DNA of 64,000 nt from a virus: positions 23,015 to 87,014 of the IMG/VR virus record IMGVR_UViG_3300013126_000016; one strand, 5' to 3'. Made by a program: the position numbers and the translations under genes. A model generated the notes under the pieces. It made no database searches, had not been told where the DNA came from, and was given only the letters and a program-made list of their open reading frames with translations. This document shows positions 3,785-45,565 of the stretch, piece by piece. Each line of letters begins with the position of its first letter. Positions within the stretch are counted from its first letter, which is position 1.

Positions 3785-3808
3785 CAAAGCATAGAAAAAA
3801 AGTAGAGT
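3781..3808 (+). promoter_or_regulatory. Candidate sigma70-type promoter upstream of primase
   Basis: TTGACA (3781-3786), 16-bp spacer, TAGAGT (3803-3808), at the start of a 220-bp intergenic gap. Confidence 0.45.
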
Positions 3809-4006
3809 ATATAAATCTCAAGGTTAATCATCTGCCAAGTTACTCCGAGTAAACTCAACCTGCCAATTTTCATATATCAGAAAACTAAAATGTACAAGAG
3901 CTGTGCTGAAAAGCGCGGCTCTTTTCTTAATAATTTTCTTAAAGTCCATCTACTAAGGATTAAGTTTTTAAAAGCTACTATATCCACTTCACTATAATGT
4001 ACTTTT

Positions 4007-13740: not shown

Positions 13741-13914
13741 ATGACTATAGAAGAGTTATTAAGCATAGCTATAAGATATAAATTAGGGAGAGAGAAGCTA
13801 GGGGATAATTGGACTATAGGAAAAGCAGTAGAGTACGAAAGTACCCTACCAAGAAAACTAACAATTGAAGAGTTAACTAAATTAACTAAAAGAGAGGAGC
13901 AATTACAGTTTTAG
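13741..13914 (+). CDS. Small hypothetical protein (57 aa, MTIEELLSIAIRYKLG...), absent from the ORF track
   Basis: ATG 3 bp after the previous stop; open to TAG at 13912-13914; overlaps the recombinase stop convergently. Confidence 0.5.
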   Translation: MTIEELLSIAIRYKLGREKLGDNWTIGKAVEYESTLPRKLTIEELTKLTKREEQLQF

Positions 13915-15381
13915 AGTAATAGATATTTCCTTATTAGAGTTAATAGTAATGAGTTCTATTAGAAGGAGATAGATATCACGTTTTTCTTGTTTAGTTCTAC
14001 TTTTAAAAAAGAGGTCATCTTGAAAACAATCTAAAAGGAGTTGACGTTTATTATTAATAGAAGTAGAAAGAGATTTTTCCCTATTATTGATGTGGTCTAT
14101 TTGTGAATACAGTTTACGAATATTAGGAGTAAGTTCTGGGTCTTCTAGGGATTCCAGGACTTTTATTTTATTAAGGATAGGAGCTATTAAGGGGTTTACA
14201 GAAGTAGATTCAAGTTTTTCTTCTTTTACTAAAAGAGATACTTGGTATGCTTTGTTTTTGAGTTCAGAGATAACTAAATCTTCAAGATAAGTATCTCTAG
14301 TAATAGAGCGATTAGAGCATATACAACTTTTATAAGCTGCGCGGCAGCGGTAGTAAACATAAGTAATACCATTCTTACTTTTAGTACTGCAAGTGTCCAT
14401 ACTGCGGTTACAGTGAGGACATTTAATTAATCCTGTTAGAGGATAGCATTTAGAAGAAGTGCCATAGCCTTTAAGAGAGGAGTTTAGTTTTGAGATACTT
14501 AATACTTGTTCATACTCATAGTCAGACATTAAAGTTTGATCAGGGTGAGTATTGTAAAAGATGATATTGTCTTTTGAGGTGTTACGTCTAAAGTAAGATG
14601 TATGGCCTCTTAAAATAGGGGAATGAAGCCAAACTGAGAGGCCTTGGTAAGTATATAAATCAAAAGATAAATGGTTTCTTTCTCTTCGGAGGTTTTTAGA
14701 AACAGGGGGGAAAAGGCCATACTTAGACATAACAGTTCTGAGAGTAAGGCGAAGGGATTTAAGAGACAGATAGAGTTCAATGAGTTCGCGGGCTAAATTA
14801 TGAATACTAAACTCTTGTTTAGTTTCTAATAGACAAAGAAAGGGGGCAGTATTAAGTTTAGGGTAACCGTTCTCTAAAACATACCCAAAGACTGGCATAG
14901 AAACCTTTTTGCTTTTTCGTATATACTCCCAAGAATCAGAATAGCGTTCTTTAATTCGTTCTATTTCGTTCCTGCTAAAAGTTACTAAAAGGCGGGCATG
15001 AGTACGACCTCCTACAGTAGTAAGATCAATATTATCTTTAAGTCCTATGCAAGGGGTATTAGTGCTAATAACAAGTTCGATAAATTCCTCCATTAAAGAA
15101 TGAGAATCAGTTAATCTATCTAAGCGTGTAAGGACTACTTGACTAACAGAATTAGATTTAATTTCTTCCATGAGTTGGGAAAGACCTTTTCGTTTTTTAG
15201 AAGAACGAGAGATAACGTCCCAATAAATTTCTGTACAACCATAAGATTTAAGTTCATCTATATGTCTTTCAAGAGTACCTTGTTTAGACAATCCATAGCT
15301 GCTTTCAGATCTAGACAAGCGGGTATAACCAATAATACGATTAGAGGGGGAGGAAAAGATAAGATGACCTGTTTTATCCAT
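13903..15381 (-). CDS. Large serine recombinase/integrase, XisF-like
   Basis: IIGYTRLS with catalytic Ser; R.GL..L; TRLDRL; DL.T..GR; E.ERIKER; PVFGY; recombinase domain; YPLTGLIKCPHC...YYRC zinc ribbon; coiled coil. Confidence 0.93.
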   Translation of the reverse strand: MDKTGHLIFSSPSNRIIGYTRLSRSESSYGLSKQGTLERHIDELKSYGCTEIYWDVISRSSKKRKGLSQLMEEIKSNSVSQVVLTRLDRLTDSHSLMEEFIELVISTNTPCIGLKDNIDLTTVGGRTHARLLVTFSRNEIERIKERYSDSWEYIRKSKKVSMPVFGYVLENGYPKLNTAPFLCLLETKQEFSIHNLARELIELYLSLKSLRLTLRTVMSKYGLFPPVSKNLRRERNHLSFDLYTYQGLSVWLHSPILRGHTSYFRRNTSKDNIIFYNTHPDQTLMSDYEYEQVLSISKLNSSLKGYGTSSKCYPLTGLIKCPHCNRSMDTCSTKSKNGITYVYYRCRAAYKSCICSNRSITRDTYLEDLVISELKNKAYQVSLLVKEEKLESTSVNPLIAPILNKIKVLESLEDPELTPNIRKLYSQIDHINNREKSLSTSINNKRQLLLDCFQDDLFFKSRTKQEKRDIYLLLIELITINSNKEISITLKL

Positions 15382-15477
15382 AGGAGGAAGAGAGTTTTAT
15401 GTGTATAGTAAATAAAACATAGGAGGAGTTTACTATAGAGATAAAACTTTAAAAAATAAAGTTTATAAAACTTTAGG

Positions 15478-18400
15478 TTATTGTTGTTTAAAGAAAGCGA
15501 GGTCTTTTAGGGATTCTTCTGTAGTGTATTTAGGATATAAAGGGTCTAAAACTAGTAAGCCAAATCCGTCTGCAGTAGTTGAGTCTGTTTTTATATCTAT
15601 AGAAGATGAACTAATAGAAACATCAAGGGTATATTGAGAAGGAGGGGTATATTGAGGATATTGAGGGTCGCTCCTGTATTGAACTGTAGGTTTAAAACCA
15701 GAAGAGTCTACAGTAAGTTTTATATTAGCAGTAGGTCTTTGCTCTTCTAATTTCTTCTTAGCGCGTTTTATTTCTACTATTTGTGAATCAAACTCTAATA
15801 CTATTCTTTGTAGTTGTTGATAATTTAAGACTGCTTTAGAATTAAATATATTAGTTTGGTCTTGAGGTTTAACAACAGGATTATCCGAGGGTAATTTAGC
15901 TATAGTACTTTCAAGAGCATTTTGAATAGGGGTAGGGACATTAGAGAGGAAATCGTATCCAGTAGTATTTTCGATTTGGTCAACAGTGGTCACATACCTT
16001 TTCCAGTCGTGGTCTAATGTTTCGCTGTTAGGGATATTAACAGCAATCACAGGGGTGCTAGAGGTAATATCTGAAATGCCAGAGGGTCGATCTAAGACAA
16101 CAATTATTTTCCAGGTATATTCAGGGATATTAACTAGATTATTAATTTTCCCCTTGCTTCCAGAAACACCAGCAATAACATACAAGGTTTTTCCTTCTTG
16201 TATTAGTTTTCTACTGTAATCTTCTAAACTTGCCCAGGTTTTTCTATTATTAGTTTCTGTTTGAGGGATGATATTAGTCATTAAAAAAGTAGAGGAATTA
16301 TCGTCCCTACTTCCTGTTCTATCCGAAGATGGAACTAAATGTCCTCTGTCATATCCAGAACCCCTATAATCACTTGGTTTTACAGATTCCCACTCTTCTG
16401 GGAGACTGAAATCTGGTTTAAAATCATTTTGTCTTTTAGTGCTTCCTAGCCATAATTGATTAGCTTCCCATGATACCCAATTAGCAGTTCCAGTACTTCT
16501 GTTATAGGATAAAGCGTATTGTTCCTTTATCATTAGATAATTATTGGGACTACTAGTATTAGATTTAGCTTGACTAGGGTTACCAAGTAATAAATGAGGT
16601 GTTAGATATATCTGTTTTGGTGTATTAGGTGTACTAGATGTATTAGGTGTATTAGGTATATTAGGTATATTAGATTTATATTCTTTTGTTTTACTAACGG
16701 AGTCTAGTGGAACTTTAGTGTTAAACGCGCCGCTAAATATATCTATTAACTTATTACCTAATCTGTAAAGTATAGTTTGTCCTTGATTAGGTATAGAGTT
16801 AATAAAGAAGAGATATTCATCTTGTCTCCTTTTTACTAGACCTCCTAAAACTCTACCATGATTATCTTTATTGTAAGGTAACAACCATTTAGCAGCACTT
16901 AGATAATCTCCTTGATTTAAAAACTTAAGTAAAGTAGAGTTTTTAAATCCACCCACACCAGCATTAAAAGCAAAAGAAGTAAGAATAGTAAACTGAGTTC
17001 TAGTTAAAGGTACTTTAACATTGTCTCTAACAGCTGTAGCAGCTTTATCCATATCCATAATAAAGATACGTTCTCCTTCTTGTTGGGTTATCCTTTGTCC
17101 CCACTTAACATCAGGTCCTGTATGACCATAACCTATAGTAAGAACACCCGTACCGTCATCATAAGTTTGAGGACGAAATTTTTCTTTATCTTTTATGTAA
17201 TTAATTATTTGTTGATCATGCTGTATATGAGTAGGTAAATATGGATTAAATAACCTATTATCTACTTTACTAGTAGAAAAAGAAGTATTACTAATAGGAG
17301 TATTCTTAGTAGGTACTTTAATACCAGCAGGTAAGGGTCTTCTAGGTATATTAATTTTCTCAGATGCTATTAAATAGCGTTGTGGTTCTATTAAAGTATT
17401 TATAGAAGTAAAATTTCCCGCTCCTGCATAGTTAAACTGTTTAGGATTAAGTATTTTATCATTACTTTTTTGTGATGCTATTGAATAGAGTTGTGGTTCT
17501 ACTAAAGTGTTTACTTCTATAAACTCTCCTGCTCCTGCATAATTAAAGTGTTCAGGAGAAGTAGAAGATATTTGTTGTTTTTCTTGAGTATGTTGAGTAA
17601 CTATTACTTGAGATGGTTTTATAGATTGTCTTCTAAACCTTTCTTTATAGAAACGAACTTTTTCTAGTAAGAGACGCATATCATGAGAACGAGGGTCTGA
17701 CCTATTCTCATTACGGTCAACATCACGGTGTGTAGTTATTCTAGACTCAGGGATATTATATCTTATAGACAATTCCGCAATAGCCTGAGCCATACTATCG
17801 TATTGTTCAGGAGTATAGCCTGAGTGGCCTATAGAATAGGGGTTACTATTAGCTGGGGATTCATAGGAAAAGTGATAAGAAAAGTTATTAACTGAAGGTT
17901 TCTGATTACGACTAACTCTAAAAGTTTCATTATTAAAATAAGAATTAGAAGCACCAAAAGCTCTTTTAGAGTAATCAACTAATTCTATGACAGTTCCGTC
18001 TCTAGTGATTATTCTATGATAACTAACCTTAGATCTAGGATCTTTAAAATAATTAACAGCTGATCTAGCAGAACTGGCTGTCTCGTGTAAAACAATTAAA
18101 GGTTGATTAGTGGCAGGTTTGCCATAAGCATCAACAGTAAGACGTTCTCCATAGTTAGAGGGGTTAACTTGTTCTCTTATAGTTCTATAAGTTCTATTAG
18201 TGGGTAGCTGCGCGGCGGCTGCCCTTGGAATTAAACTCTGTACTATTTGACTTCCTATAGACTGTTGTGCAGACTGTCTAGCTATTTCTAAAGTTGTACT
18301 TCTACGGTCATTACTAGAACCTGTTAAGTCTAAAGCTCTGTTAGTAGCTATTTGTATAGATGTATTATTAGCAACATTAGATGGTATATTATAAGATATT

Positions 18401-21400
18401 ATAGGAGCTGGCCCATATCTTATTTCTAACAACTCACTAATAGTTTTAAACTTATACTGTTTATTAGAAAAATATCTTATTATTCCTTCTAAAGAATTAA
18501 CAGTATTTTGTCTTGAAAGATTTGTTTCCCCACTGTCAGGATCTTTTCTAAAACTATCATGAAGGAGTATTATTGAACCTTTTCCTAACCTTTGTCTACT
18601 AGTCTTTACTCCTAGAATTACGTTGTTAAGGATTTGATTACTAGAGGAAGCTCTAAAATCTTTAGGGTCTATATCTGCTCCTATTATAGCATAGCCTAAT
18701 CCTCTTACATATTCTACGATAGGAGTATTGTAATTAAAATAAGGGGCTCTAAAAGTAATATTAGTTTTATTAAAATTAATACCAGTAATACTTTTTAAAG
18801 TTTCAATATTATCAGTTATTTCTTTTTCTATTTCACCTGATGAGAGCTTTCCTAATTCATCTCCTGGAAGAGAAATCCCAGCAAACTTTTTATGTTTTAA
18901 ATGTCTTTGAGTATGTAAACCTAATTGGTGACCTTCTTCAACAATCCTTCTAACTAAATCTGGGTGTTGTTTAGCGTGTATACCCATAAGATAAAAAGTA
19001 GCTTTTACTCCGCTTTCCTTAAGAATGTCTAAAATTCTTGGAGTAAATAAAGGGTCAGGTCCATCGTCAAAAGTGAGAGCTACTACTTTTTCTTGGGTAT
19101 TAATATAATCTATAGGTTCTCTAGGAGGGTTATTAACTAAACTAGTAGGTAAAGCTTTGTACTGCCTAATAGCTTGAGTTAAAGGTACTCTAGTTAAAGG
19201 TGGTGTTGATGATCGTGGTGGTGGTGGTGTACTTCTATTTCCTACATATTGTGCATATCTAGTTCTAGCAAATCTCATGAACTCAGATAATTTGCCGGTT
19301 GGTTTTGCTTGATTAGGGTATTGACTTTTTCCTTCATCTGTTTGTAGGGGAGTCCATATACCAGATATTTCAAAGAATATACTACTTTTTATGTTTCTAT
19401 TTTCTGAAAAAGCACTTATAACTTCATTTAAGTATGCTCCATTTCCCCTTTCAAAAAGTAAGTATATAGCTAATAAATCTTGTACACCTGGTTCATAAGA
19501 AGGTTTAGATCTAAATAATTTCCTTAGAGTAGAATTAGCCCTTCGCCACTCAAGGTGAGGTGGGTTATTGTACATTATTTGATATCGTCCTGAAGCAGTA
19601 AAGGCTCCAGGTAAAGGACGATTATCGTAAGGCATTTGAGACAGATCAGTTAGCTCTGCCCCGCCATATAATTTAGTATAACCGTAGTTTTTAGTTGCAT
19701 TATTAGGTAAAAAATCTGTTCCTTCTGATCTGGCTATAGCATCAAAAAACGCTCTTATAGCTGGGTGGTCTAAATATTGTTGAAGTTGTGTACCTAAAGG
19801 CGTTAAGTATGAAGTATCTCTAGGATTTAAAGGGTTATTACCTCTACCGGTTAGTATAGAACTAGGAAGGGTATTACTAGAGTAAACATCATTTGCTATT
19901 GTTTGTGATCTGCGAAGAACATTAGGATTACCGCTGTTTAAAGCTTTAATATACCTTTCATGGTCTTCAACGGAAGCGGACAAGTGGACGTGAACATCTC
20001 CTGTAACAGCTGCGGCATTACTTTGAGTGCCTAAAAACTGACCTTCAACTACAGACTGACCGCTAGTAAAAGTAAGGCCTTTCAAATGATACATTTGACC
20101 TAATATTCCTCTTTTGGAAGAGTCTCTTATAAAGGAGTCAGAAGAAAAAGAGTTTAAATAATCTTCTCTAGTTTTATAAAAAGTGTAGCCACCTAGTGCT
20201 GGTAAAACTTTTACAAAAGCAGTAAATGGAGAAGGAACTGGGACATCAGTAGATTGTTGACCTTTTAGTCTTAATACGTAATCTATTTTTATTAGATTAG
20301 GGTTAAAAGGTTCTATTTCATCTCTTCCTCTACCAGGAATCCCTAAATCTCTATACCTCCTCCCACTTCCTGTTGTATTTCCTCTATTTGTTGTACTTGG
20401 ATGATGTATTGAAGTATCATTAAAAGTTTTAACTTTGTAAGGGCCTGACATTACGTCATAAGGAGCATAAGATACTCCTAATCCTAAAGGGGAGCCTGTA
20501 GGAGTTGGGGTTGAGGAATTAGCAGGAGGTCTAAAAGTTGCAGCATTAGTACGACTACCACCAGGTGAATAAGTATAAGGACCTAATATAGCGCCAATAG
20601 CACCTCCTCCAATAGCACCACCGATAATAGCAAAAGGAGCAGCAGGGGGAAACAAAGCAGCTAATATACCACCAGCTACTAAACCTACCCCGGCACCTAC
20701 AGCAGTTGATAGAGCAATATGTCTTTGAAAATCTAATAAATCTCTACTAGAAGAGATCTTTAAAGCAGACATCCTTTGTGTGTAATAAGTGTCTAATACA
20801 TCGTTTAACACAGGAGAACCAAAGATTTCTAGAGCTATAGCAGCTCCGACACCAAGTGGGCCAAAGACAGAAAGGCCTAGACTTACGCCGCTCATAATTA
20901 TGTTTGTAGTTTCGCCGGCTAACTTTCTAGAAACGTATTCTCTACTTAACTGTTTTGGTTGACTTTCAGTGTCAAACATACTATATAAAGATAATCCAGC
21001 TCTAAAACCAGAAATATAGCTCATATAAGAGAGACCTACACCTTTTACAGTGCTCTCAAAAGAAGGTATTTTAAAGAAATTACTTACACTAGAAAGGTTT
21101 AAAGAACTAAGTTTAAAGTTTTTAATAAAATCAACCCCTTGAGGTAAATTAGAGACCAAAGGAATCCCTACAGAAGAATATAAAAGGGTAGATCCTACAG
21201 CTTGTTTTGTTTTATCATCATCTTTAGAAAACTGATTATAAGCTAAATAACCAAAGGTTAATCCTAAACCTAATAAATTTCCTGTATTTGCTAACTTATT
21301 ATTAAAACTAGAGCTAGTCGTAGATACTGCTTTATTAATAGTAGCTGTAGTAGTAGCTGTAGTAGTAGCTGTAGTCTTACCTAAAGGATTATTTGCATAA

Positions 21401-24400
21401 TACTGACTACTGTATCTAGTATAAGCAGGGTCAATAGGATTAGAAGAGGGTATGTAAGGCAGTGGTACTTGTCTAGGTAAACTAGGAGGAGGAAAGATAG
21501 GTTTAGGAACTTGAGGTATGAAATTAGTTGAAGTAGAAACAGGTGTTGGAGAGAGTAAAGTAGCCGAAATAGAAACAGGGGCTATGTTCTGGGGTATAAA
21601 TTTTGTAATTATATAAGGATTTTTTAATCGTAGAATTTGTTGTTGAAAAGTTTTAGCCTGTATTTCAGAGATATCATAACTAACTACAGCACGTACTGTT
21701 GAAGGGTTACCAGGAACTGCTTCATAGTTTTCTAAACCTATTTCTACACTTCTTCTATAAGTGTAAACTCCTCCTTCTTCTGGTATAAAGTCTGCATTAT
21801 AAGGTACAAATTCCTTTTTGCCCTGAGCTTTTACTTCTATTAAATCAGTCTTTGAAGCGGGAATAGAATCTAACTGTTGTCTAAAAGAAGGGTGACTAGA
21901 GGGGGAATCAGTGACCTGCATTTCAGGATGACGTTTACCAAAAAGTCCTCGTTTTTGGGATTCTACAGGGATTGCAGGTCCCTCTATTAAATGAAAAGTT
22001 AATTTATTATCAATAACTTTAGGAGTTTGTTGTAATATTCCTGTTCTTCTCATTAACTGCCCGTCAGCAGAATAATCGGGATAAACTATATCATAAGTAC
22101 TTCTAAATAATTTAACATTTTTATTGTAAGTGTATGAGGTAGAAGAAGTACCTATTACTTTCTTGTTGGGGTTAGAAGGACTAGGAGCAAAATTATCTAT
22201 AAACTTAATATCTACTCCTTTTAGTTTATTTAATTCAGAACTAGTAGACAGTATATGAGAAGGCAAATGAGTATGCCTCTTAATAGCAAAATCATAAGGA
22301 GATACAGCAAAACGAGGATTTAAACTAGCAGTAGTAGAACCTCCAGGAGTAGTAGAAATAGTAGCAGTAGTAGAACCTCCAGGAGTAGTAGAAATAGTAG
22401 AAGTAGTAGAACCTCCAGGAGTAGTAGGAATAGAAGGTTGAATTGTGTTAATGGAAGCCTTTTCCAGTGCAAGAGTTTGCAATCGATTTTGTTTAATATG
22501 TTTTAGAGATGCAAAGGACTCAAAAACACTGTAAAGAGCGACGCCGCCCGCTAATGTTAATACTCCTGTTTTGACAGTATCTCTATCTATAGTAATAGGA
22601 ATAGATTTAATAGCAGCGCCGAGAGTAGTGGCGCTAGGAAGTCTAAATTTTTCAACAAAATTATGGTAATGAAAGTCTGCTACTTTATCAGAGAAATAAT
22701 TTATAAATTTAGAAACACTAAGAGAAGCTAAGAAAATAATATGGTAGTTAACAGATCTACCACTTAGCCTAGCATTTCTTAAAGCCAAGGAACCTAATCC
22801 AGCATTTATAGTAGGGCCTATTAAGTTTTCGTAAGCTGCCCTAGTTTCTTCTTTAGTAGATTTAAGGTTAAGATTTAAAACGTTTAAAGCTCCTGAACCT
22901 ATAAAACCTACATCAAAGATAGAAGGTGAGTGATATTGAATATTACCAAAGAAGGAGCGTAAACCTGAACGAATAGGGTTAGTAACAAAACGAGCAGCGC
23001 CCACACTTCTATTATAGATATTAGAAGATAATCTAGTTATAAAAGGTGGGATAGAAGGTAGTCTTATTCCTCTAGAAACTCTAGTTGCAATGTTAGAAGA
23101 ACCCCCAAGAAAAGAAAATACGCTACCAGTAGCTCTAGTTAATGCGTTAAGAACAGGATTAAAACCTCTCAAGTCAGAGCTTAAATAATCTAAAAAGGGT
23201 CTTCTAGTCAAGCCATATCTAAAAGCACCATAAGAGGAGAGGATAGTAAAACCGGTGTTTATTGAATTAGAGATATTTTGAAGATTAGGGTCATTAGGAT
23301 TTTTAGAGAGAAATAAATTATTAAAAATAATTCTAGAAGTAAGAGCTACAGAACTTAGGCCTAAAGTAAAAGAATTTCTAGCTCCAAAAGGAAGGAGAAA
23401 ACGAACACCAGCGCCGACACTTGCTTTAGAAGCACCTTGAAATACTTTAAAAACGCTAACTGCAGTAGCTAAAGTTAGACTGCGTATACTAGTTGGAACT
23501 CTAAGAGATTTAAAAAAAGACTGGTGTGCTGTTTTTCCAGAGAATGCTAAATGAGCGGAATAAAGTAAACCGATACCGCTTAGAGTAGAAGCTATAGCTA
23601 AATTGTTGCGTTGTTTATCTTCTTTTGATGAGTATCTATCTAGTAGATTATAAGCACTTATTAGAGATAATAATAATCCAGTTATAGCGATGTTTTTAGA
23701 GTTGTTTCTTATAAAAGGTATGTTAAATAATTGTTGTGCTTGTGTTCTAATTCTAGTATTAAAAGGTGAAAAGAGACGAGAAAAAACATTTCTAGTAGAA
23801 TTAGCCACACCGTGAGTAATGTTAGAGTAGAGGGCACCAATAGCTCTAATAGGGCGATATAGACGACGTATATTAGGTCTAATAACATCTCTGTAAACAA
23901 GGTCTTTGTAACCGAGGTAAGTAGAGTTATAGGCAAAACCAAGTTTAGGGACAACAGAAAAAATAGTGCTGAGAAGAGTAGCACCTCTAAAGAACTCAGG
24001 TAATCTACGTTGATAAGAACCGACAGCTTCATGATCTGAAATCTGAATACGGCGTTGGATAGCTAATCTAAGAAGAGAACTACCCATTGCACGAGGTCTA
24101 AAATCGTTTAGTACTCTAGAAGAATTAATTGATTCAAAATACCTATCAGCATAAATTCTATCATATTCAGCAAACCTACCAAGAACAGAAGAGTGTACAA
24201 AATCATCTATACCTCCTCTAGTTGAGCTGGCTCTTTGTCTAGCTGTCCTCATTAAGTCTAATCTATTCTGATAGACATCTATCGATGTATATTTAAATAG
24301 GTTTCTACCAGCAAAAGCATATTCACGAGTAAACTTAGGATAGATGATGCGGTCGAAGCGTTTTGCGGTACTAGGGAGAAGAAGGTTAGAGAGAAAAGTA

Positions 24401-27400
24401 AGTGGGACATTGCCACTGATTTGGTTATCGACTTTATCCCAGACATAATCAAGGCTAGAGTCTATATGTTTAAAGACAGAGTTGCGTGCAGCGGAGAGGA
24501 CATTAGAGACACCAGGTACTCCTGAAAGGTGATATATAATGGAAGAGGTTTTGTTAAATATAGGAGTACCAATATGGCGGTCATAAGATCTAGTTAAGTT
24601 TACAATAGAGCGAGTAAAAGAGCCGCGAAGAAATTGTTGATCCAAGTAATAAGCACCGATAGCGGAGCCAACTAAAAGAGAAGCGGCTCCAAAAGCTGGA
24701 ACACTAGACATTGCGGCGCTAAATGCTCCAAGGGCAAAAACAGTTGCAGGAATTTCCCCTAAGAATCCAGCAGTAGCTTGAGAAGCTTCTATTTTACGAA
24801 GCATGTCATTTTCAGACCCAGCTAAAGTAAAACTAGATACAGCACTATATAGAGGAAAGAAGTCGTTAGCAGCTCCTATTATTTTCATAAGGCCAAACAT
24901 ACCTTCAGAGAGCACTCCGCTAAACCCTCTATTTAACATAATTCTATTGATTATTTGTTCTGACTCAGGAGCTGTAGAGCTTATTCTATGCTGTATATTA
25001 CCTCTAGGAGGAGTAACATTAGGGATGTTTAAGTATTCAGAATCAGTTACTAATTGTGCTGTAGCAGAGTGAAATAAAGATGTGTGTATTTGTTTAAATT
25101 TATTAGCTAATACAATTTTTAATTTATTAAGACGTATTTCATCTGAAAGACTATTATCAGCAAGGATATAATTAATTTCATAAGATAAGGAATCAAACTG
25201 GTCAAGGAAATTCTTTAATTTATCTGGTTGAGATAAACCCATTACATCTCCGAACTTTATAGACCTTTGAGATTGGGAAGCAGGGTTTACAACATCAATT
25301 ACAGTTCTGTCTAATAAATCGGATTTAAACCTATCTTTTATACTATTTATATAAGTATCTACGGTTTCAGTTCCTCTTAAAACCTGTCTTAAATCAGAGT
25401 TAAACAAACTTAAATCAGAATTAGAGCTAGAGTAGTTTATCAAGCGTCCATAAAAATTATTAAACTCAGAGCTAACATTGCTGGATAATTTTCCTAAGTT
25501 ACTACGTCCATCAGGGGTATCAGAAAACAATAGTTTATTTTCATCTAAATTAAAGAAAGCTTCAGAAGTTAATAGATATACAGGTTTATTAGTGCCTTTA
25601 AATTGTATTGGGTGTAAGCTAATAACTGGACTTTTTGCATCGTTTATAAATGCGTAGGATAAAGGAGGTCTTCTTATTCTTTCCAGGTCATTAAGAATGC
25701 TTTCTAGTTTACGAACAGTAGAGTTATGGAGAGCGCCTTGATTATAAGCTGCAAAAGAAGCAATAGATTGAATAGAGAAAGTAATAATATTACCGGTAGT
25801 AATAAGAAACAGAGGTATTTGTTGAGCTGCTAACAGAGCAGCTGTTCCTGAGGTAGTAGTATTATTAAACCCACCTAGAGCGTACTTAAAGGTATTACCA
25901 AAGTAAGAAAATAAAGAAGAACTATCATTTTTTGGTCTAGCAGAGTTTATAAAATTGTAATCTAGATCTTTAGAACCGTACTTAATATTATCTAAGAATT
26001 TAAATAATTTATTACCAACGTCAAATAATAAGTTACGTTTTTTGGGTAAAGAAAAGTAACCGGAATAATTAAAGTAGTCAAAAGGTGAGAAAGTGCGAGG
26101 GAGTTCTCCAAATGGTAGAATCTTACTTAGTTCTTTATTAACTAAGTCTGTTTTAAACTTTCCAGACTTAAACAAGTCAAAGAAGAGAGAATAAACTAAT
26201 TCTATAGGACGTTGGTGACTTAATCTTCTAGTTTCCTGAGTACGGAACTGTAAAGCATAAAGAAGAGCTTCACTAGTATTAGAAAGCATTTCTGATTCTG
26301 TACTAGTAATAAAACCTACTAATTTAGCGGGAGACTTACGAGGTAGAGAACCCATAATTCTGTTGTAGTTACGCTCTAATAGTTGGTCTGGAGATATATT
26401 TCTGTCATCATAGCTTAGTATATTTTTAAATATTTGTGAGAAATCAGAACTACTTAATAATTGAGCAAAGCTGTATTGAGAGCCACTAATATCCGCGAAA
26501 GTTCCTTGAGATTGAGTATATAGTCTAAAATCGTATCTACCTTCAGAGAGGCCAAAAGGTCCGCCTAGGGGTATAAAGGCGTTAGCATTATCTTGGTAGA
26601 TAAGGCTTTTAATACCGAATATAGAGGTAGCGGCGCGGAGTAGATAATCAGAGTAAGCGTAGAGAGAATCTGTAAAGTTTTTAGGTTGATAACGAGGTTT
26701 TTTATAAGACCCTGGAAGTCTGTACAGCTGCTCTTCAAAAGTTAAATTAGCTGAATCAGAATCCGAAACAACATCTGTAAAACCTAAACCTTTACCTGTT
26801 AATCCTCTGCCGAATAAACCTATAGCCGCTAACACGGCTGATACAGAGAATACTCTTCTTGCAGCTATAGATAAACGTAGAGGTACTGTTCTTACAAACA
26901 AATTATCAATAGATTGACTAGCATCTATTGCTTGAGTATATATTCTATGTATTGCTTGCTGTTGGCGACCTATATAAGTGTTAGGTGTAGCGTTAGCAAA
27001 GGACTCAGCAGTATCAAATACACCTGCGTTTCTTAATGAATATCCATAAATAGCAGTAAGAGGAATAGTAGTGGTAGTTAGCTTCCAGGCTTCCGAGGCG
27101 AGGGCATTGGGTTCTAGGAAAGAACCTATATGGGAGAAATCAGAATCAGGAGAGTGAACAGAGGAAGCGTACAGATAAGCAAGAGCCAAAGGTAAAGCTC
27201 TTCTAAAGCGGGAGCCATAGCGAGTACCAAGAGCTCTAAGAGATTGTTCAGGAATGCCTAAAGTAGCAGCTGCGCCTCTAGCAATAGCATTAGGCAGAGC
27301 AAAAAGGGGAGTTTGACTGTATCTAGCAAGAGTTTCAAAAGAACCGGCTACAAATTTAGCTATATGATAAGGAGTTTTAAATTGTCTTAGCTCTCTTCTT

Positions 27401-30400
27401 AAAGTAGAAGTTGATGGAAGTCTTCGTAATCTATCTTCTAGTCTATCAAAACCAGTAGAAATATAAGAAGATATTCCAACAAAACTCATAACAGTAGAAA
27501 GAGAATTATCTTTAGAGAAAGAGAGAAAATGTTTAGGAAAAGATAAGAAAGAGAGTGAAAAAGCTAACTTTTCACTTTCGGATATATCTTCTTCAGTTAG
27601 AGGAGTTTTACTACTAATATAATTTATACTGCTCCTACGAGCTTCAGGTAAATAAGAATTAAAAGGTTTAAGTCTAAATTCTAAAGGTGCAGAAGGGATA
27701 GAGCCAGTACCTAATATAGGGAAAAACTGAAAACCTGCTCCTATAGTTAATGAATTACCAGCTGGGTCTAGTTTAGATACAAAAGTTAGCTGAAAGATAG
27801 GGTTAGGTATTTGTTGAGAGAAGTTGTAATTAACTTGTTCTCTAGCGACTCTACCATAGGTTAGATTATAAGCTGCTAACATGGAGAGATTTAACATAGA
27901 ATATTCTTTAATAGTAAAAGGTTTATCTTGTTGTAATCGAGATACAACACCCTTAATTAAAGATAGAGATGAGAGGTAATTTTCAGAGTTAGGGGAAGAG
28001 CCTGTAGGAGAATTACCTGAGATAAACTTATTAAGATTTAAGATATTAGCTGCGGCGTTAAATATAAACTGAGTAGCTAATAAAGTAAGGGAACCTCCTA
28101 TTAGAGCTCCCAACCATCCAAATTTAGTAACAGGTCTAGAACTAGAAACATTCTTTAATCTTGTTAGAAGTTGCTGTTGTTCTGTAGTTAAATTAGTAAA
28201 AGGATTATCTAATAGGGAAGAAGTTGGGTCATTAATACCAGTAGCTTGCCTAACAATATTAAGATGTTGTAGTATTCCATGTGGATAGAAGCGTTGTGTT
28301 CTTTCACTAAAAGACTTTTCAAAGATACTAATACCAGTACTAGTAGTATATTCAAAACTAGGGAGTAGGTGTCCACCTATAATAAAACCAGACGCAACTA
28401 AAGGATATTTTATATAACCAGGTATGCCACCAGAATATTTTATGTTAGCAAACTTACGATCATTGCCCTCTTTAGTTTTATAGCTTGTAAGATTAAAATC
28501 AACTAATATCTGGTTAATAAGATCTCCTGAGTTACGCATTATATGAGGGTCAAACAACTTATCAGCTATAAGAAGAGGACCAACAGAAAGAAGAAAACCA
28601 CGAACAGACTTAAAGATATTAGGTTTACCAGCATCTATAGAAGTAGCATAATTATAACGACTTTGAACGATAGTATCGTACTGTTCTCTGCGTTGTATAT
28701 ATAATTCTAATAATCGTCTAGAGCGGGGTTCTCTTAATAAGTTTTGGAGGGATCTGCTTAAAACACCTACATTATTAGGGTCACTACCACCACCATATAA
28801 TTGTTCTGTTAGCTGTCTTAATAATTCTGTATAATCAGGAGCACCAGCAGGATTTATTGGTGTAGTTAGATTTAAGCGTCTAAAGTTTGCATTTTTTAGT
28901 ATTCTTTCTACTCTTGTGTATATTTGTTTTTCTATAGAAAATAAAGAATTCTCTAGAGTGTAAATTCTAAAGTTTTCAAAAGCTTCTTGATAGATATTAG
29001 AGTTAGTTGATTGTTTAAAGATAGTTTGAGCAATCCTTTTACTAAAAGCAGTAAGACCGCTAAAACCTGGAGCCAAGAGATTTTTAAGGGAATAATCTTC
29101 AATATCAGTACCTGCGCTGCGGTCAACTCTGAGGGAGCGGATGCCAATAGAATCACGATAAGGTTTAAAATAAAGTAAAGGATTAGCAGGGATAAACTCA
29201 GATATTTTATCTAATAATTCAGCGATGGATTCTAATCTTGAATAACCGTAGTTTTTTATTTCAAAATCGCTAAATCTTCTATGGAAACTACCATCAGGAG
29301 TCTGTACTATTTTATAGACAGCTACAGGGTTTTGAGACAATAAATTTCTGAGGTTTTCTAAGTTATTATTAAAGATCCTTCTAGATTCGTCATCAGGCAC
29401 AACAGAAATAGATTCTAAGATAGGAAATACAATATGATTAAAATTAGAAAGGTCTAACTGTCTAAATCTAGAAAGTTGTCCAAACCAACCTCTATCAAAA
29501 CCTAGAGTAGAAGAATTATAAGACCTAGAAAGGTCAAGTTCTGCAGTAGTAGTGTTAATACCTAAAACTTCGCGTTGAACTCGAGTTAACTCATCAGAAC
29601 TAAGAGTAGTAGGAGTTGTTGAAACTGAAGGTGTAATATTTTCTGAGACATGAACAATTAATCTATTAATAGCAGAACCCTCTGGGGTTACATTATTGCT
29701 ACCGTATATTACGTCTAACTGTAAACGGACATCGTTATTTATACCACTATAATCAGGAGTATAACCTTGTATTTCAGCAGCTCGTTGAGTTACGTAATTA
29801 TAATAATCTTCTACAAACTTACCAGCATTAAGAGAACTTATATTTGGGTCAGTACTAATAAATGAGTTTTGTAGGTTTGTAATAATATCTATAGATTTAA
29901 TAAATTCATTAGAAAAGAAAAAGTCTCGTATATTTCTATCACTTAAGTTAGTAATATCAGAATCAGTAAATAAAGTGCTACTAACCTTTTCAATACCAAC
30001 TTCTTCAAACTGAGCTTTAGCGATAGAAAAAGTATGAGATACACCAAAGTAAAAAGCTAAAGAATAAGCTGTAGAAGAAACCGTCATAGCAGAGGAGTAG
30101 ATAGTGTTTTCAAACACTCCTCTTTCTGGATCTGCTTCGTAAAAAGATTTATGAAATTTTGATATAGAACCTTTTTCTTTTCCGGAGCGTACTCTTCTAT
30201 AAAATTCGCTAGAATAGAATCCAGTAAAAGTATCTAATACACGTCCTACGCCTTTAGCCAGTACACCAGTCAGACCAGAACCTTCAGTATAGATATCAGT
30301 AAATATTCTATTTAGAATATCTCCAAAACCGGGTAAATTAAGACTGTAATCAGCCCATTTAGCTATAGTACCTTTAAAACCTGTAGGTTTTTCTCCTGAT

Positions 30401-37771: not shown

Positions 37772-38860
37772 TTAACTAGGGTATGATACATTAATAGAGG
37801 ATAATACTATAATCTCATTAATATCTGCTGTAACATCAGAGGAAGGTTCAAGGACTGTACAATCTTGGACGAGAGGTAGAACAGAGAATTTAATAAGACT
37901 TATGGGTAAAGGTTGGTTAATATCAAGAGAGTTAACGGAGGAGTAGAGAGCTTCAGATATTTGACTATTAAGGGAGGAGATATTATAATCAGAGCTATAA
38001 GGTGTAACTTTAATAGAGATAGAAACTGATTTAACGGTAGCGTTATTAACGGAAACAATAATACCAGCAGGAATATAAGGTTCAAGATAGGAAGTAAGAG
38101 AATCAACTTCTATAGAAGAGTAAGAATTAAGAAAATTAACCCATACTTCTACGATACCGGGTATTCTAGTTTTAACATAACTTCTAGTTACGCCAGTATA
38201 TGCTTGGAGTACACTTTTTAGAGTAGAAATAGAGTAAGGATGATTATTAGAGTATAAATAATAAAAGTAGCGGGCGCGGAGGGAAAAATCTGATTCTTCA
38301 TCACTACCTCCGAAAAACCCTTCAGAGAAAGAAGTTTTAGAACTAGCTTTACCTACAAAAAAACGTATAGTAGGCTCAGTAGATATTAACTCCGAGTTAA
38401 ACAAGGGGGTTCCAGCACTAAGGTTGTAAGAAGAACCAGGTACAAATGAAGCAACGTTAACTAAAGTATTCTGCTCTGGATTAGTAGAAGTTGAAACAGC
38501 TGATAATGTATAAAATTGAGAACCTGAATTAGTATCTGTTAACACAGTACCCTGCTGTACTAAAATAGATTTAGAAGTAGGTAATATAGTCACAACACCT
38601 TCTGAATAAGAAGGAGAAGTGCGGGTAACCAAATAAGAAGTAAGGGAATCAAGGTCGGAGCCAGAAGCTGTAAGGGGAGAATAAGAAGTAATAAGGGAAG
38701 CTAAGCGGAGTTCAAGGTTTTGGATAACAGCGGAGTTAGCTCTAGCAAGAGTATAGAGAGGGGAAGATGGATTAGGATCTAAAGAAAGGGGGCTGGAAGT
38801 AGATCTTATAGTAGAAAGATATTCATCAAGGATAGATTGAAAGTTTCTAGGAGAGAACAT
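37772..38860 (-). CDS. Baseplate J / Mu gp47-like wedge protein
   Basis: TASGSDLD; GTVL; G..YNL.AG; GGSDEESDFSLRAR; GV....PG.V.VWV. Confidence 0.9.
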   Translation of the reverse strand: MFSPRNFQSILDEYLSTIRSTSSPLSLDPNPSSPLYTLARANSAVIQNLELRLASLITSYSPLTASGSDLDSLTSYLVTRTSPSYSEGVVTILPTSKSILVQQGTVLTDTNSGSQFYTLSAVSTSTNPEQNTLVNVASFVPGSSYNLSAGTPLFNSELISTEPTIRFFVGKASSKTSFSEGFFGGSDEESDFSLRARYFYYLYSNNHPYSISTLKSVLQAYTGVTRSYVKTRIPGIVEVWVNFLNSYSSIEVDSLTSYLEPYIPAGIIVSVNNATVKSVSISIKVTPYSSDYNISSLNSQISEALYSSVNSLDINQPLPISLIKFSVLPLVQDCTVLEPSSDVTADINEIIVLSSINVSYPS

Positions 38861-38869
38861 AATAACTAA

Positions 38870-39283
38870 TTAAATATTAATAGATAAAGAATCTGAGCCT
38901 ACTCTAAAAGAGACAGAAGTTTCGCTTATAGAATTACCATAAACTTTAACAGAGTTAATTCTAGATTCGTACTGAAGACTTTCAATAATAGAATTATAAA
39001 AATCAGTAGAGTTTATTTCTTCCTCTGGAAGAGAAACGTAATCCTGTAAATCTGAACCATAAGTTTCGTCTATTAAAGTTAGTTTAAGTGGTACGTCTCC
39101 TAGTAAAGGATTAGAATCTTCAAACTCTGGTTCTAAAATATAACGAGAATATGCGTTTATATGAGTAGATAACCTGCATTTAACTTCTTTAGAAATAACA
39201 TCTAAACTAAAGAGCCAGTTAGTAGATAAATCTCCATCAATAAATTGAAGGCCTTTAAGCTGAAAGTATTGTTGCATAATCAA
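38870..39283 (-). CDS. gp25/W-like baseplate protein
   Basis: DGDL...RLST...YGSDL...IIESLQYESRINSV; sits upstream of J. Confidence 0.7.
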   Translation of the reverse strand: MIMQQYFQLKGLQFIDGDLSTNWLFSLDVISKEVKCRLSTHINAYSRYILEPEFEDSNPLLGDVPLKLTLIDETYGSDLQDYVSLPEEEINSTDFYNSIIESLQYESRINSVKVYGNSISETSVSFRVGSDSLSINI

Positions 39284-39888
39284 AGAGAAATAGGTAAAGA
39301 GGAATCTTGTTCAAAACCAAAACGAAATGTACTAATAGATTTATCAATAGACCAAGATCTATCAGTTACGTTAACTAAGCCTTTATTAAAAGGTTCATAG
39401 AGACCTAATACTAACCTATAATTTCCCTTGTCCCACAATCCTGAAGAATTAAATGATATAGTAGAGTAGTTAAATAGGTCATTACCAACTAATAAGAGAA
39501 CTGAATCTTTTATGAGTGACCAACCTAAAAAACCTTGTTTATGGTATTTAGGGAGAGAGAGGTTAACAAAAAGGGAACCGAGGGGGGTGTTAGGGGAGAT
39601 AATTTTATAAGAGAGAGGAGGGGGTGTAAAGAGTTTATTAACAGAAGCGTAAGAATTAACAGAAATATTAGAGAGATCCCCCGAGATAAGAGTTGCTGTA
39701 TTTTTAGAAGAAATATATAAAGAGCAAGTAGAAGCTGTAATTATTTGACCAACGATGGGGATTGATTCTGTGAGGGGTTGTAAAGTAATTGTTTGTTGCG
39801 TAAAGTCTATAGATTCTATTACAAAATCAACTTCTGTATTTTTTACAGATTGAGAGTAATAAGAAGATGCTGGTTTAAGATTTAGCAT
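39280..39888 (-). CDS. Hypothetical baseplate-region protein
   Basis: Translationally coupled ORF in the operon; no motif recognised. Confidence 0.65.
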   Translation of the reverse strand: MLNLKPASSYYSQSVKNTEVDFVIESIDFTQQTITLQPLTESIPIVGQIITASTCSLYISSKNTATLISGDLSNISVNSYASVNKLFTPPPLSYKIISPNTPLGSLFVNLSLPKYHKQGFLGWSLIKDSVLLLVGNDLFNYSTISFNSSGLWDKGNYRLVLGLYEPFNKGLVNVTDRSWSIDKSISTFRFGFEQDSSLPISL

Positions 39889-39897
39889 ATTAGTAAA

Positions 39898-40269
39898 TTA
39901 ATAGACAGTACGTTGAGTTTGGGGATTAGGGCTAGTAGTAGAGGGGTATGTAGGAAGAGTAGGGGAAGGGGGAGCAGTTTCTTTAGTAGGGGGTGGGTCT
40001 ACTTTAGGTTTCTTTTTAGAACTGCCTTTAAACATTTCCCCTAATTTTTTTAGAGCCCATTTCTGGGCATTATTAGCTATTCTCAATCCTTCTTTTTTTA
40101 GTTCTTCTTCTACTATAGCTTGTACCTGTTCTTGACTTAGAAGGTCAACATCATCTTCTAGTAATCTGTTTTCTATTTTTTTTAATAGAGGACTTTCAGC
40201 TGTTTTAGAGTTACTAGCTACTGAGCCAGTAGGAGTAGGACTATTAGTATTAATATTATAAGAACTCAT
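39898..40269 (-). CDS. Hypothetical protein with Pro/Thr-rich tail
   Basis: 123-aa ORF in the operon. Confidence 0.6.
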   Translation of the reverse strand: MSSYNINTNSPTPTGSVASNSKTAESPLLKKIENRLLEDDVDLLSQEQVQAIVEEELKKEGLRIANNAQKWALKKLGEMFKGSSKKKPKVDPPPTKETAPPSPTLPTYPSTTSPNPQTQRTVY

Positions 40270-40279
40270 AGGATTAAAA

Positions 40280-41785: not shown

Positions 41786-41790
41786 AAAAA

Positions 41791-45562: not shown

Positions 45563-45565
45563 AGT

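Follow-up and report, generated by a model that had tools for sequence, protein, structure and literature searches.

A cysteine-free cyanophage protein of 5263 residues with seven enzyme domains as a candidate virion-borne entry protein

What might a phage do with a single chain of 5263 residues that combines two nucleases with a series of cell wall enzymes? The question is raised by one reading frame in a fragment of IMG/VR record IMGVR_UViG_3300013126_000016; the whole 64,000-nt stretch of DNA analysed here is called the window.

15478..31269, minus strand: giant ORF, 5263 aa, 0 Cys (uninterrupted reading frame; independent contigs cover the region)

This ORF is a real protein-coding gene. 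Its C-terminal enzyme block was recovered on a single contig from an independent freshwater assembly, and a 9766-nt contig from another study spanned positions 15000-21136 with 43 differences from the window. In diverged strains, most of the listed indels left the reading frame intact: their lengths were divisible by 3, or neighbouring insertions added up to 3. GC3 was low throughout (0.11-0.25 in all domains). An assembly chimera, a concern raised in an earlier sequence-only reading of this DNA, was rejected on account of the spanning contig, the frame-keeping indels and the even GC3. Assemblies broke or showed indels in the region encoding aa 2441-3440. The predicted mass of the chain was about 580 kDa.

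The following features were found in the enzyme-bearing parts.

30634..31017, minus strand: N-terminal staphylococcal-nuclease (SNase) domain, aa 85-212 (PF00565, 6.6e-14; phrog_452)
19900..20352, minus strand: M23-like (LytM-like) domain, aa ~3640-3790 (8kea_A C-terminal peptidase; sub-threshold in Pfam)
19429..19794, minus strand: lambda-R-like lytic transglycosylase, aa ~3826-3947 (phrog_90, 8.6e-12; 1am7/3d3d, ~2e-4; 8kea_A lysozyme domain)
18688..19101, minus strand: CE4 polysaccharide/peptidoglycan deacetylase, aa ~4057-4194 (PF01522, 4e-31; PDB 7y51, 1e-27)
17689..18099, minus strand: Amidase_2 (N-acetylmuramoyl-L-alanine amidase), aa ~4391-4527 (PF01510, 3.5e-19)
17320..17547, minus strand: two ~37-aa tandem repeats (FNYAGAG...) between amidase and lysozyme (repeat analysis)
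16816..17190, minus strand: GH24 phage lysozyme (muramidase), aa ~4694-4818 (PF00959, 1.1e-35; PDB 9kbs, 8e-27)
15931..16578, minus strand: NucA-type non-specific endonuclease, aa ~4898-5113, DRGH intact (PF01223, 8.8e-55; 1zm8/2o3b, 1.7e-88)

Five of these domains (SNase, CE4, Amidase_2, GH24 and Endonuclease_NS) scored above the curated Pfam cut-offs in a search of aa 1-5263, and the lambda-R-like domain, which matched no Pfam family, was identified by PHROG and PDB. The domain assignments of the sequence-only reading were thus correct. The SNase match (52.7 bits) covered the full profile (1-107), with a weak PDB match, and the Ca-binding and catalytic D, D, E, R and R residues were present by eye. 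For CE4 (Polysacc_deac_1, 108 bits), the TFDD, H(S/T)xxH, RxPY and LxH motifs aligned to 7y51. The Amidase_2 zinc ligands H, H and D/C (69.9 bits) were read by eye and were partly covered by an AmpD alignment. The Phage_lysozyme domain (123 bits) aligned to 9kbs, with an E-D-T catalytic triad seen by eye, and Endonuclease_NS (186 bits) had DRGH plus Asn and Glu. In the lambda-R-like domain, the catalytic Glu of SEGT was retained, SEGTD aligning to lambda lysozyme (1am7/3d3d). By eye, against motifs characteristic of these families, we also read DADT, IRV, DAPE and YGR in SNase; TFDDG, HTQRH, RAPY and LLH in CE4; LHET...E...H..D...SDP in Amidase_2; E...D...T in KEKF..YDDGTGVLTIGYGH in GH24; and DRGH...N...E in NucA. 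The catalytic motifs that had been described as looking intact were present when read from the sequence. The caution expressed about M23 was also right: aa ~3717-3781 scored only 15.1-18.4 bits against the PF01551 cut-off of 28.7, and HxH was kept, whereas HxxxD was not recognisable and a Leu aligned at the first-His position. Judged from these residues, the M23-like domain is probably degenerate and possibly non-catalytic.

The proposal that the protein had accreted host-like domains gained support from its C-terminal nuclease. The NucA domain matched Anabaena sp. PCC 7120 NucA (1zm8, 2o3b; E 1.7e-88) over its whole length, with about 57% identity in the first 103 aligned columns and the DRGH site common to both; unlike Anabaena NucA, the copy in the window is a domain within a phage giant. 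CE4, Amidase_2 and GH24 occurred in the member of the window only, since all 65 family relatives lacked them. The sequence-only reading had missed this family altogether: the giant is one member of a conserved family of giants that lacks a name. Since the relatives share a core of about 2200 aa, the giant was not built from scratch. The parts between the N-terminal nuclease and the wall enzymes are as follows.

23950..30567, minus strand: conserved family core, aa ~235-2440, predicted mostly helical (blastp to 9 relatives; alignments; 52 representative matches)
20950..23949, minus strand: lineage-specific region with S/T/P-rich repeats, aa 2441-3440 (matched by 0 of 65 relatives)
20578..20901, minus strand: glycine-rich hydrophobic (membrane-type) cluster, aa 3457-3564 (Kyte-Doolittle windows 1.8-2.0)

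About 3300 aa had been described earlier as largely helical or hydrophobic. The hydrophobic part of this description stood, as a hydrophobicity scan located segments at aa 1052, 1468, 1811, 2165-2204, 2557 and 2902, whereas the helical part appeared only in a low-confidence AlphaFold2 model of core aa 235-1234 (10 sequences, mostly helical, pLDDT 51). Foldseek found no structure resembling this model at E <= 0.001 in PDB or BFVD, the weak rows being meaningless, and ESM Atlas gave no usable match for the core or for a 683-aa tail protein of the same virus. The lineage-specific region contained three TTPGGSTT units (aa 2949-2980). The glycine-rich cluster lay directly N-terminal to the wall-enzyme block, and a membrane-type segment was likewise found about 170 aa upstream of the M23-like domain in two relatives (G005 and G003). 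No hydrophobic segment reached the threshold before aa 1052 and hence there is no Sec signal, though the substrates of the enzymes are periplasmic; no recognised secretion domain was found by Pfam.

A HMMER search gave 52 representative clusters, 37 of them at least 3000 aa long, and full-length relatives measured 4155-7873 aa from stop to stop. The layout of the family is a swappable nuclease (PLD, SNase or NucA), the core of about 2200 aa with hydrophobic segments, a variable region with glycine-zipper membrane segments, and variable wall enzymes. Of 16 related IMG/VR records, 9 had a homolog, among them all three with at least 90% completeness; the other seven were only 18-40% complete. The closest relative (G001) ends at its contig edge. 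A word-indexed search of aa 230-3650 against proteins of 2894-9211 aa found none, which reflects its limited sensitivity since HMMER later found the 52 relatives, and none was confirmed in a pattern scan of IMG/VR with aa 231-3230. The annotated proteins of Calothrix genomes include a distant member (WP_242045528.1). In GTDB the core matched just two contigs, both short and from one MAG labelled Actinomycetales, which are probably mis-binned and useless for host assignment; a scan of GTDB genomes with the capsid protein gave no match.

Cysteine is avoided almost totally across the family. Over its 5263 aa the giant has none, whereas the other window ORFs have 167 in 14,840 aa (1.13%); the nine relatives have two altogether, and family members P0002-P0057 have 20 in 242,765 aa. 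Indeed, Ser occupies a position of the NucA domain where the printed Anabaena NucA sequence has Cys. Such a simple and strong signature could help to find translocated phage proteins elsewhere.

Subsequently, the genomic setting was considered. The virus is a freshwater myovirus in a cyanophage setting, as had been read earlier: all GenBank-phage matches were to cyanophages (10 of 10 for the capsid, 14 of 14 for the sheath). The giant gene ends a co-directional run of protease, capsid, sheath, tube, baseplate-J and fibre-like genes, with a serine integrase directly downstream on the same strand. Two conserved genes lie upstream.

31290..32288, minus strand: partner gene, 332 aa (alignment; immediately precedes the giant gene in 9 of 9 relatives)
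33267..35057, minus strand: fibre-like gene (synteny; weak phrog_17415 match only)

The gap between the partner and the giant is 20 nt. In relatives the partner has 187-326 aa, and in G007 and G011 it shares the boundary base of the giant; an AlphaFold2 model was beta-rich at low confidence (pLDDT 41). A Calx-beta-like reading, by eye, of an insertion of about 140 aa in the partner had no Pfam backing and was rejected. The fibre-like gene has a conserved part of about 440 aa, and its two complete copies in relatives have 602 and 1466 aa, the others reaching a sequence edge. A terminator-like hairpin (32355-32372) lies between an upstream ATPase gene and the partner, so that co-transcription of the giant with the tail genes is not certain.

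We consider it modestly probable that the giant is a virion-borne entry protein ejected through the contractile tail, a cyanophage version of polyvalent or pilot proteins. This role is inferred from the gene position, the absent signal peptide, the cysteine avoidance and the domain types. The co-directional place at the end of the structural run with a 20-nt upstream gap, the homologs in all three near-complete records, and the synteny of the partner point to it, as do the cysteine avoidance across the family, the lack of a Sec signal for enzymes that target the periplasm, and the membrane-type segments ahead of the wall enzymes in the window, G005 and G003. Furthermore, in the five records searched, Amidase_2, M23 and Phage_lysozyme were confined to giant genes, and the tail module of Microcoleus phage My-WqHQDG contains separate beta-lactamase-family, amidase, LytH and M23 genes, its amidase being 32% identical to the Amidase_2 domain. 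The M23-like and lambda-R-like pair also matches domains of a tested tail-tip hub, gp15 of Anabaena myophage A-1(L) (8kea_A): aa ~3717-3947 of the giant are homologous to the lysozyme-type domain and the C-terminal peptidase domain of gp15. This hub, a baseplate protein of 899 aa, includes a barrel domain. [quoted passage not shown] In the giant the two domains stand in reverse order and no hub barrel was detected.

As an ejected entry protein, the chain would pass through the tail tube in an unfolded or extended state. The thick peptidoglycan of the cyanobacterial host would be opened by the transglycosylase, deacetylase, amidase and muramidase, perhaps helped by the degenerate LytM domain, and the hydrophobic segments would insert into membranes as part of a conduit. 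The nucleases would have extracellular, periplasmic or host nucleic acid as their target, which they would attack at entry or outside the cytoplasm. Several points count against this account. By Pfam, PHROG, tblastn and Foldseek, the core showed no detectable similarity to known ejection, tape-measure or polyvalent-protein domains, and Pfam revealed no zincin-like processing peptidase in the giant of the window. We know of no requirement for podovirus-type ejection proteins in myoviruses. A chain of about 580 kDa with seven enzyme folds would need a place of storage, for which the head and the tail lumen are only candidates, two apparently active nucleases made late in the cytoplasm need explaining, and the hairpin leaves co-transcription uncertain.

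The same features could belong to a tape measure that lies in the tail lumen, sets its length, leaves first, forms a channel and cuts the wall, as in the smaller T5 Pb2. The tape measures of T5 (Pb2), mycobacteriophage TM4 and Thermus phage P74-26 are tail-ejected helical chains in which hydrophobic segments precede a peptidoglycan hydrolase, and that of P74-26, at about 5000 aa, shows that very long ones exist. The giant is likewise long and, in the low-confidence model, mostly helical, with membrane-type segments before the muralytic domains. Moreover, among the genes that separate tube (47773-48456) from baseplate-J (37772-38860), none is recognisable as a tape-measure gene: the 711-, 683- and 501-aa proteins there had no Pfam match and none resembles a long hydrophobic helix; the 683- and 711-aa proteins gave nothing meaningful against PDB sequences. 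However, the giant gene follows the baseplate and fibre-like genes in all 10 phages instead of lying between tube and hub, and no tail-chaperone-like gene precedes it, its partner being modelled as beta-rich with low confidence. At 1.5 A per residue of alpha helix, chains of 4155-7873 aa would, if fully helical, give tails 0.6-1.2 micrometres long, although the capsid proteins of these phages share 54-94% identity with that of the window. About 1500 aa of globular enzymes would, when folded, be too big for the tube lumen. The giant matched no tape-measure family in Pfam or PHROG, and the Pfam tape-measure families PF10145 and PF06791 matched nothing in five records including the giants; given the diversity of tape measures, this evidence is weak. 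The giant thus differs from muralytic tape measures in gene position, family matches and its seven enzyme domains including two nucleases, and we regard this role as unlikely. Similarly doubtful is a broader version of the entry role, in which one cysteine-free giant of these contractile-tailed cyanophages would replace both the tape measure and the ejection set: stored extended, it would exit the tube, cut every class of wall bond, form the conduit with its hydrophobic core and place in the periplasm a nuclease of extracytoplasmic type (SNase, PLD or NucA, depending on lineage) that destroys competing incoming DNA or matrix DNA. If true, entry machine and superinfection barrier would be combined in one molecule.

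The distribution of lysis enzymes bears on another possibility, namely that the giant never enters the particle and is a weapon expressed late or from the prophage, either a holin-released lysis enzyme or an envelope-anchored protein of polymorphic-toxin or superinfection-exclusion type. The five records contain no separate Amidase_2, M23 or GH24 endolysin outside the giants, although the search covered these three families alone and found no member of any in G007, so that endolysins of other families probably exist. The downstream integrase, the classification of G009 as a provirus and the distant member in Calothrix genomes would suit such a weapon; the modularity of head, core and variable tip recalls polymorphic toxins, and the upstream hairpin could mark a separate transcription unit. 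On the other hand, a signal peptide and a recognised secretion domain are both absent, the conserved location closing the structural operon, where the partner lies close by or shares its boundary base, fits late structural expression, and a conserved core of 2200 aa with membrane segments would be needless for an endolysin. On balance we give this explanation little credence.

Because the gene follows fibre-like genes and its product has a conserved proximal and a variable distal part in the style of fibres, an external fibre or whisker was also considered, the enzymes of which would break down the sheath and mucilage that surround the host, together with the extracellular DNA there. Matrix polymers could be substrates of the nucleases and CE4, yet enzymes outside the outer membrane cannot reach peptidoglycan, an exposed fibre with several hydrophobic membrane-type segments would be odd, and neither Pfam nor PHROG gave fibre or beta-helix family matches. 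This explanation is very improbable.

Returning to the ejected entry protein, we compared the giant with injected proteins already described. Phage proteins with many enzymes that are injected are an existing concept, which the earlier reading had missed: in the survey by Iyer et al. 2017 (PMC5512222), polyvalent proteins carry many disparate activities directed at nucleic acid and peptidoglycan in one chain, phage types including lysozyme and DD-peptidase domains; their genes stand with the late virion genes, and the proteins are predicted to reach the host cell together with the DNA and are scarce in cyanobacteria. The giant likewise joins several disparate domains, two nucleases with CE4, Amidase_2, GH24, lambda-R-like and M23-like domains, and stands at the end of a capsid-sheath-baseplate-fibre operon. 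Unlike polyvalent proteins, which such domains link, it has no zincin-like MPTase or LPD domain matched by Pfam (aa 1-5263, E <= 0.01); a sub-threshold SprT-like match occurred in one relative only (G012). It also differs in its 2200-aa helical, hydrophobic core, membrane-type segments and cysteine avoidance; the word "transmembrane" occurs zero times in the main text of the survey. As for other injected proteins, PMC13434306 and PMC8954989 describe the N4 virion RNA polymerase of about 3500 aa, packed in the capsid and expelled into the cell (PMC13434306), and podovirus ejection proteins that span the envelope. These have no sequence similarity to the giant and belong to podoviruses whose cargo is a polymerase instead of nucleases and wall enzymes; together with polyvalent proteins they provide a precedent for injected giants.

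The statement that this combination of domains had not been described was borne out in GenBank phages, protein listings and the literature. The giant ORF gave zero matches in megablast against GenBank phages, as did aa 231-3230 in tblastn; no place in these phages covered more than 16% of the C-terminal block, and none of the 110 matches listed (914-2911 aa) covered more than 19%. A literature search, which lay outside supplements and subscription papers, found no prior description. If virion-borne, the giant would rank with the largest injected phage proteins and those richest in enzymes, and would fill the cyanobacterial gap noted in the polyvalent survey (PMC5512222), offering a testable model for how large myoviruses cross a thick, highly cross-linked cyanobacterial wall. 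The three unrelated folds of the N-terminal nucleases point to a selected, unexplained nuclease role at entry, and the amidase, muramidase, transglycosylase and deacetylase domains are candidate lytic enzymes against bloom-forming cyanobacteria.

Ma-LMM01 represents the nearest described cyanophage group. Its gp080 (YP_851094.1, "hypothetical protein") was not linked to the family, having no match to the core profile, a local PLD profile or Pfam, and kinship is only a lead. Lying on the opposite strand, unlike the giant, gp080 is nevertheless also a giant (3562 aa) that contains 1 Cys and adjoins the structural module.

The giant ORF (15478-31269, minus strand) was a single unbroken frame of 5263 aa. 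The sequence-only reading had assigned seven enzyme domains to this one chain. Five of them were called by Pfam, each above its curated cut-off, and another was matched by PHROGs.

Enzyme domains of the giant protein
aa 85-212, SNase, Pfam above cut-off
aa ~3826-3947, endolysin-type (lambda-R-like) domain, PHROGs phrog_90, 8.6e-12
aa ~4057-4194, Polysacc_deac_1 (CE4), Pfam above cut-off
aa ~4391-4527, Amidase_2, Pfam above cut-off
aa ~4694-4818, Phage_lysozyme (GH24), Pfam above cut-off
aa ~4898-5113, Endonuclease_NS (NucA), Pfam above cut-off

A weak PHROGs match was also obtained at aa ~3659-3781. The M23-like part stayed below the Pfam cut-off (15-18 bits vs 28.7); in the alignment with M23 domains of the family, HxH was kept but Leu replaced the first zinc-binding His of HxxxD. 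Catalytic motifs were present in the other six domains, as judged by sequence reading and, for CE4, NucA and GH24, by alignments. Therefore, six domains are solid and the M23-like one is doubtful, as had been suspected. When aa 3561-4060 were compared with PDB sequences, lambda lysozyme (1am7/3d3d) was matched at about 2e-4 with the catalytic Glu of SEGT aligned. The baseplate hub of cyanophage A-1(L) (8kea_A, 1.7e-7) was matched at two separate parts, the lysozyme domain and the C-terminal peptidase. [quoted passage not shown]

The integrity of the ORF was examined in other assemblies. In X2, a freshwater run produced independently in a different study (2018), one Logan contig of 9766 nt aligned to 15000-21136 without gaps and at 43 differences; this stretch extends from the integrase junction across all six of the C-terminal enzyme domains. 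Other X2 contigs covered most of the remaining ORF, leaving small gaps and being interrupted at a short repeat. Three tandem 12-aa units, TTPGGSTT.TIS, are present at aa ~2949-2980 (window ~22240-22440), where independent assemblies break or vary by in-frame insertions and deletions. Among the indels listed for the diverged strains of runs X3 and X6 (90-99% alike), most were multiples of three or nearby insertions summing to three, a pattern that would be expected for a coding frame under selection. GC3 was low throughout (0.11-0.25 in every domain). An assembly chimera was ruled out by the X2 contig, the frame-keeping indels and the even GC3. Together with the Pfam, PHROGs and PDB matches, the unbroken frame and the X2 contigs confirm that a multi-enzyme chain is encoded.

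The source record (87 kb, rated 59% complete) carries the following genes, all on the same strand as the giant and listed in transcription order.

Genes leading to and following the giant ORF
57549-58574, minus strand, head protease
56187-57503, minus strand, major capsid protein
48472-52038, minus strand, sheath protein, 1188 aa
47773-48456, minus strand, tube, followed by several tail genes
37772-38860, minus strand, baseplate-J-like wedge protein, followed by a 760-aa protein
33267-35057, minus strand, fibre-like gene
32414-33229, minus strand, AAA_15/AAA_21 (OLD/AbiEii-type) ATPase
31290-32288, minus strand, partner gene, 332 aa, followed by the giant ORF
13903-15381, minus strand, large serine integrase (phrog_95, 1.2e-46), 96 nt downstream of the giant

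Among GenBank phages, the capsid protein matched only cyanophages (10/10 records), with identities of 31.7% to Microcoleus phage My-WqHQDG and about 28% to the Microcystis Ma-LMM01/MaMV group, and so did the sheath protein (14/14). The runs containing the sequence were lake and freshwater metagenomes. Taken together, these findings support a cyanobacterial host well. Since one of the relatives, G009, is recorded as a provirus and the window encodes a serine integrase, the phage group is probably temperate. The ATPase gene, inserted between the fibre-like and partner genes only in the window and in G001, G003 and G005, looks like a defence-type moron within the tail operon. Downstream of the gene lies a terminator-like hairpin (32355-32372) composed of the iterated palindrome TAGCCGCGCGGCTA and a T-run; three exact copies of TAGCCGCGCGGCTA occur in the window (at 67, 32357 and 58990) and none in the 15.8-kb giant ORF.

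We searched 16 IMG/VR loci of capsid relatives (54-94% identity) with aa 231-3230 of the giant. A homolog was found in nine of the 16 records. The seven that lack it have completeness values of 18-40%, and it occurs in each of the three records rated 90% complete or more. The stop-to-stop frames of six relatives were 4155, 4460, 5176, 6114, 6952 and 7873 aa, and three more were cut at contig ends (3400+, 4659+ and 5682+ aa). The common core corresponded to aa ~235-2440 with 23-40% identity (blastp), and the flanks on both sides were not conserved. A homolog of the partner gene directly preceded the giant in 9/9 relatives, with a boundary base in common in G007 and G011, and a homolog of the fibre-like gene was located farther upstream. 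An extra beta-rich insertion of ~140 aa (about aa 45-190), for which Pfam gave no named family, is confined to the partner proteins of the window and of G001, its closest relative. An HMMER search of 1.84 billion representatives with a core profile (aa 235-1234; E <= 0.001) yielded 52 proteins, 37 of them of at least 3000 aa. Source names were rare and referred to single domains ('muramidase', 'D-alanyl-D-alanine carboxypeptidase', 'MepM/NlpD'); a distant 2882-aa member was a 'phospholipase D family protein' of Calothrix. Core fragments (39-44% identity) were also seen on two short contigs, NBNH01000179.1 and NBNH01000038.1, of the MAG Actinomycetales bacterium mxb001, which are probably mis-binned phage contigs.

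No recognisable tape-measure gene was found between the tube and baseplate-J genes (38870-47701, minus strand), and hence the possibility that the giant is itself the tape measure stays alive. PF10145 and PF06791 gave zero matches in five records, and Pfam matched none of three tail proteins: a 711-aa protein after the tube with 18 Cys, homologous to Ma-LMM01 gp093 and a My-WqHQDG protein; a 683-aa protein with four LPxFLQ-type repeats; and a 501-aa protein that looks like a beta-rich spike. The first two had no match among PDB sequences either. However, the giant gene lies downstream of the baseplate and fibre-like genes in 10/10 phages with no chaperone-like gene upstream, the protein is anywhere between 4155 and 7873 aa long in related phages, and about 1500 aa of the chain are globular enzymes. 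We thus consider a tape measure unlikely, although its mechanism would mostly be the same as that of a virion-borne entry protein.

The variable ends of the relatives were scanned with Pfam. PLDc_2 was found in the N-terminal parts of G001, G003, G005, G007 and G011; in G001, an NgoFVII-type PLD nuclease was matched as well. The giants of the other relatives carried M23, VanY, Beta-lactamase2 and DPBB_1 (G013), DPBB_1, a glycine-zipper domain and a sub-threshold SprT-like match (G012), or VanY and a weak protein-kinase/APH-like match (G009); G011 also had M23, and G008 gave weak protein-kinase/APH-like matches only. The C-terminal parts of G003, G005 and G007 and the truncated G001 piece had no Pfam match. 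With local profiles on 53 proteins (the window protein and 52 representatives), PLD was located before the core or near its start in 25, SNase was N-terminal in five and internal in one, and NucA was N-terminal in one; none of these was detected in the other 21, some of which are fragments. Therefore, one slot is filled by three unrelated phosphodiesterase folds. Among 65 partly redundant relatives (56 proteins and nine locus translations), the M23-like part recurred in eight, the lambda-R-like part in seven and NucA in one. CE4, Amidase_2, GH24, aa 2441-3450 and the C-terminal tail recurred in 0/65; the window protein thus carries a lineage-specific C-terminal extension. Its own NucA domain is near the host-type Anabaena NucA (E 1.7e-88).

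Not one of the 5263 residues of the giant is Cys, as against 167 of 14,840 (1.13%) in the 38 other ORFs of the window (>=150 aa). The nine relatives had two in total, both within the last 20 residues of G009, and the family proteins P0002-P0057 had 20 in 242,765. In the phage NucA domain, Ser occupies the Cys position of the printed Anabaena NucA sequence. No trivial explanation of this depletion is known to us; it points to selection across the whole chain, including the acquired domains.

The enzymes of the giant would act on peptidoglycan, a periplasmic substrate. There was no hydrophobic stretch at threshold before aa 1052, and so no Sec signal; access would therefore be gained only from outside via the tail, or once lesions have opened the membrane at lysis. 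About six hydrophobic segments lie in the helical core, and a glycine-rich membrane cluster (aa 3457-3564) immediately precedes the wall enzymes. Delivery from the particle is favoured by this cluster, the late-operon position, the conserved partner gene, the helical core and the Cys purge; the protein would pass, unfolded or extended, into an oxidising compartment. Outside the giant genes, none of Amidase_2, M23 and Phage_lysozyme was found in the five records that were searched, which fits the entry reading and leaves room for a lysis role. Staphylococcal nuclease, Anabaena NucA and PLD-type Nuc are characterised enzymes working outside the cytoplasm, and this analogy suggests that the nucleases of the family may have a periplasmic or extracellular site of action. 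Judged from these sequence features, an entry protein is plausible.

The closest concept is that of polyvalent proteins, described in PMC5512222 as large multi-enzyme phage proteins that are injected with DNA and often carry lysozyme or DD-peptidase domains, and as scarce in cyanobacteria. The giant shows two of their defining features, but the hallmark MPTase or LPD link was not found in it by Pfam (PMC5512222). In our literature searches, no paper linked cyanophages with polyvalent or giant multi-enzyme proteins. The family is best placed among the injected proteins of the polyvalent, pilot or tape-measure-like kinds, as a variant of them. No described protein with the same domain combination was found: coverage of the C-terminal block did not exceed 16% at any place in GenBank phages, nor 19% in any protein among the matches listed (110 proteins, 914-2911 aa). 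The giant is a new, unusually enzyme-rich member of a cyanophage giant-protein family not described before. In Ma-LMM01, the nearest described cyanophage, the unannotated 3562-aa ORF gp080 (NC_008562.1 57700-68388, minus strand) likewise adjoins the structural module and is almost Cys-free (one Cys). An HKD-like motif was seen in it by eye; Pfam, the core profile and a local PLD profile gave no match, and homology to the giant was not established. In My-WqHQDG, wall enzymes are encoded by four separate genes (beta-lactamase family, amidase, LytH and M23; OR578706.1 25351-30992) in the tail module between tube and baseplate, whereas they are domains of one chain in the giant, whose Amidase_2 is 32% identical to the My-WqHQDG amidase.
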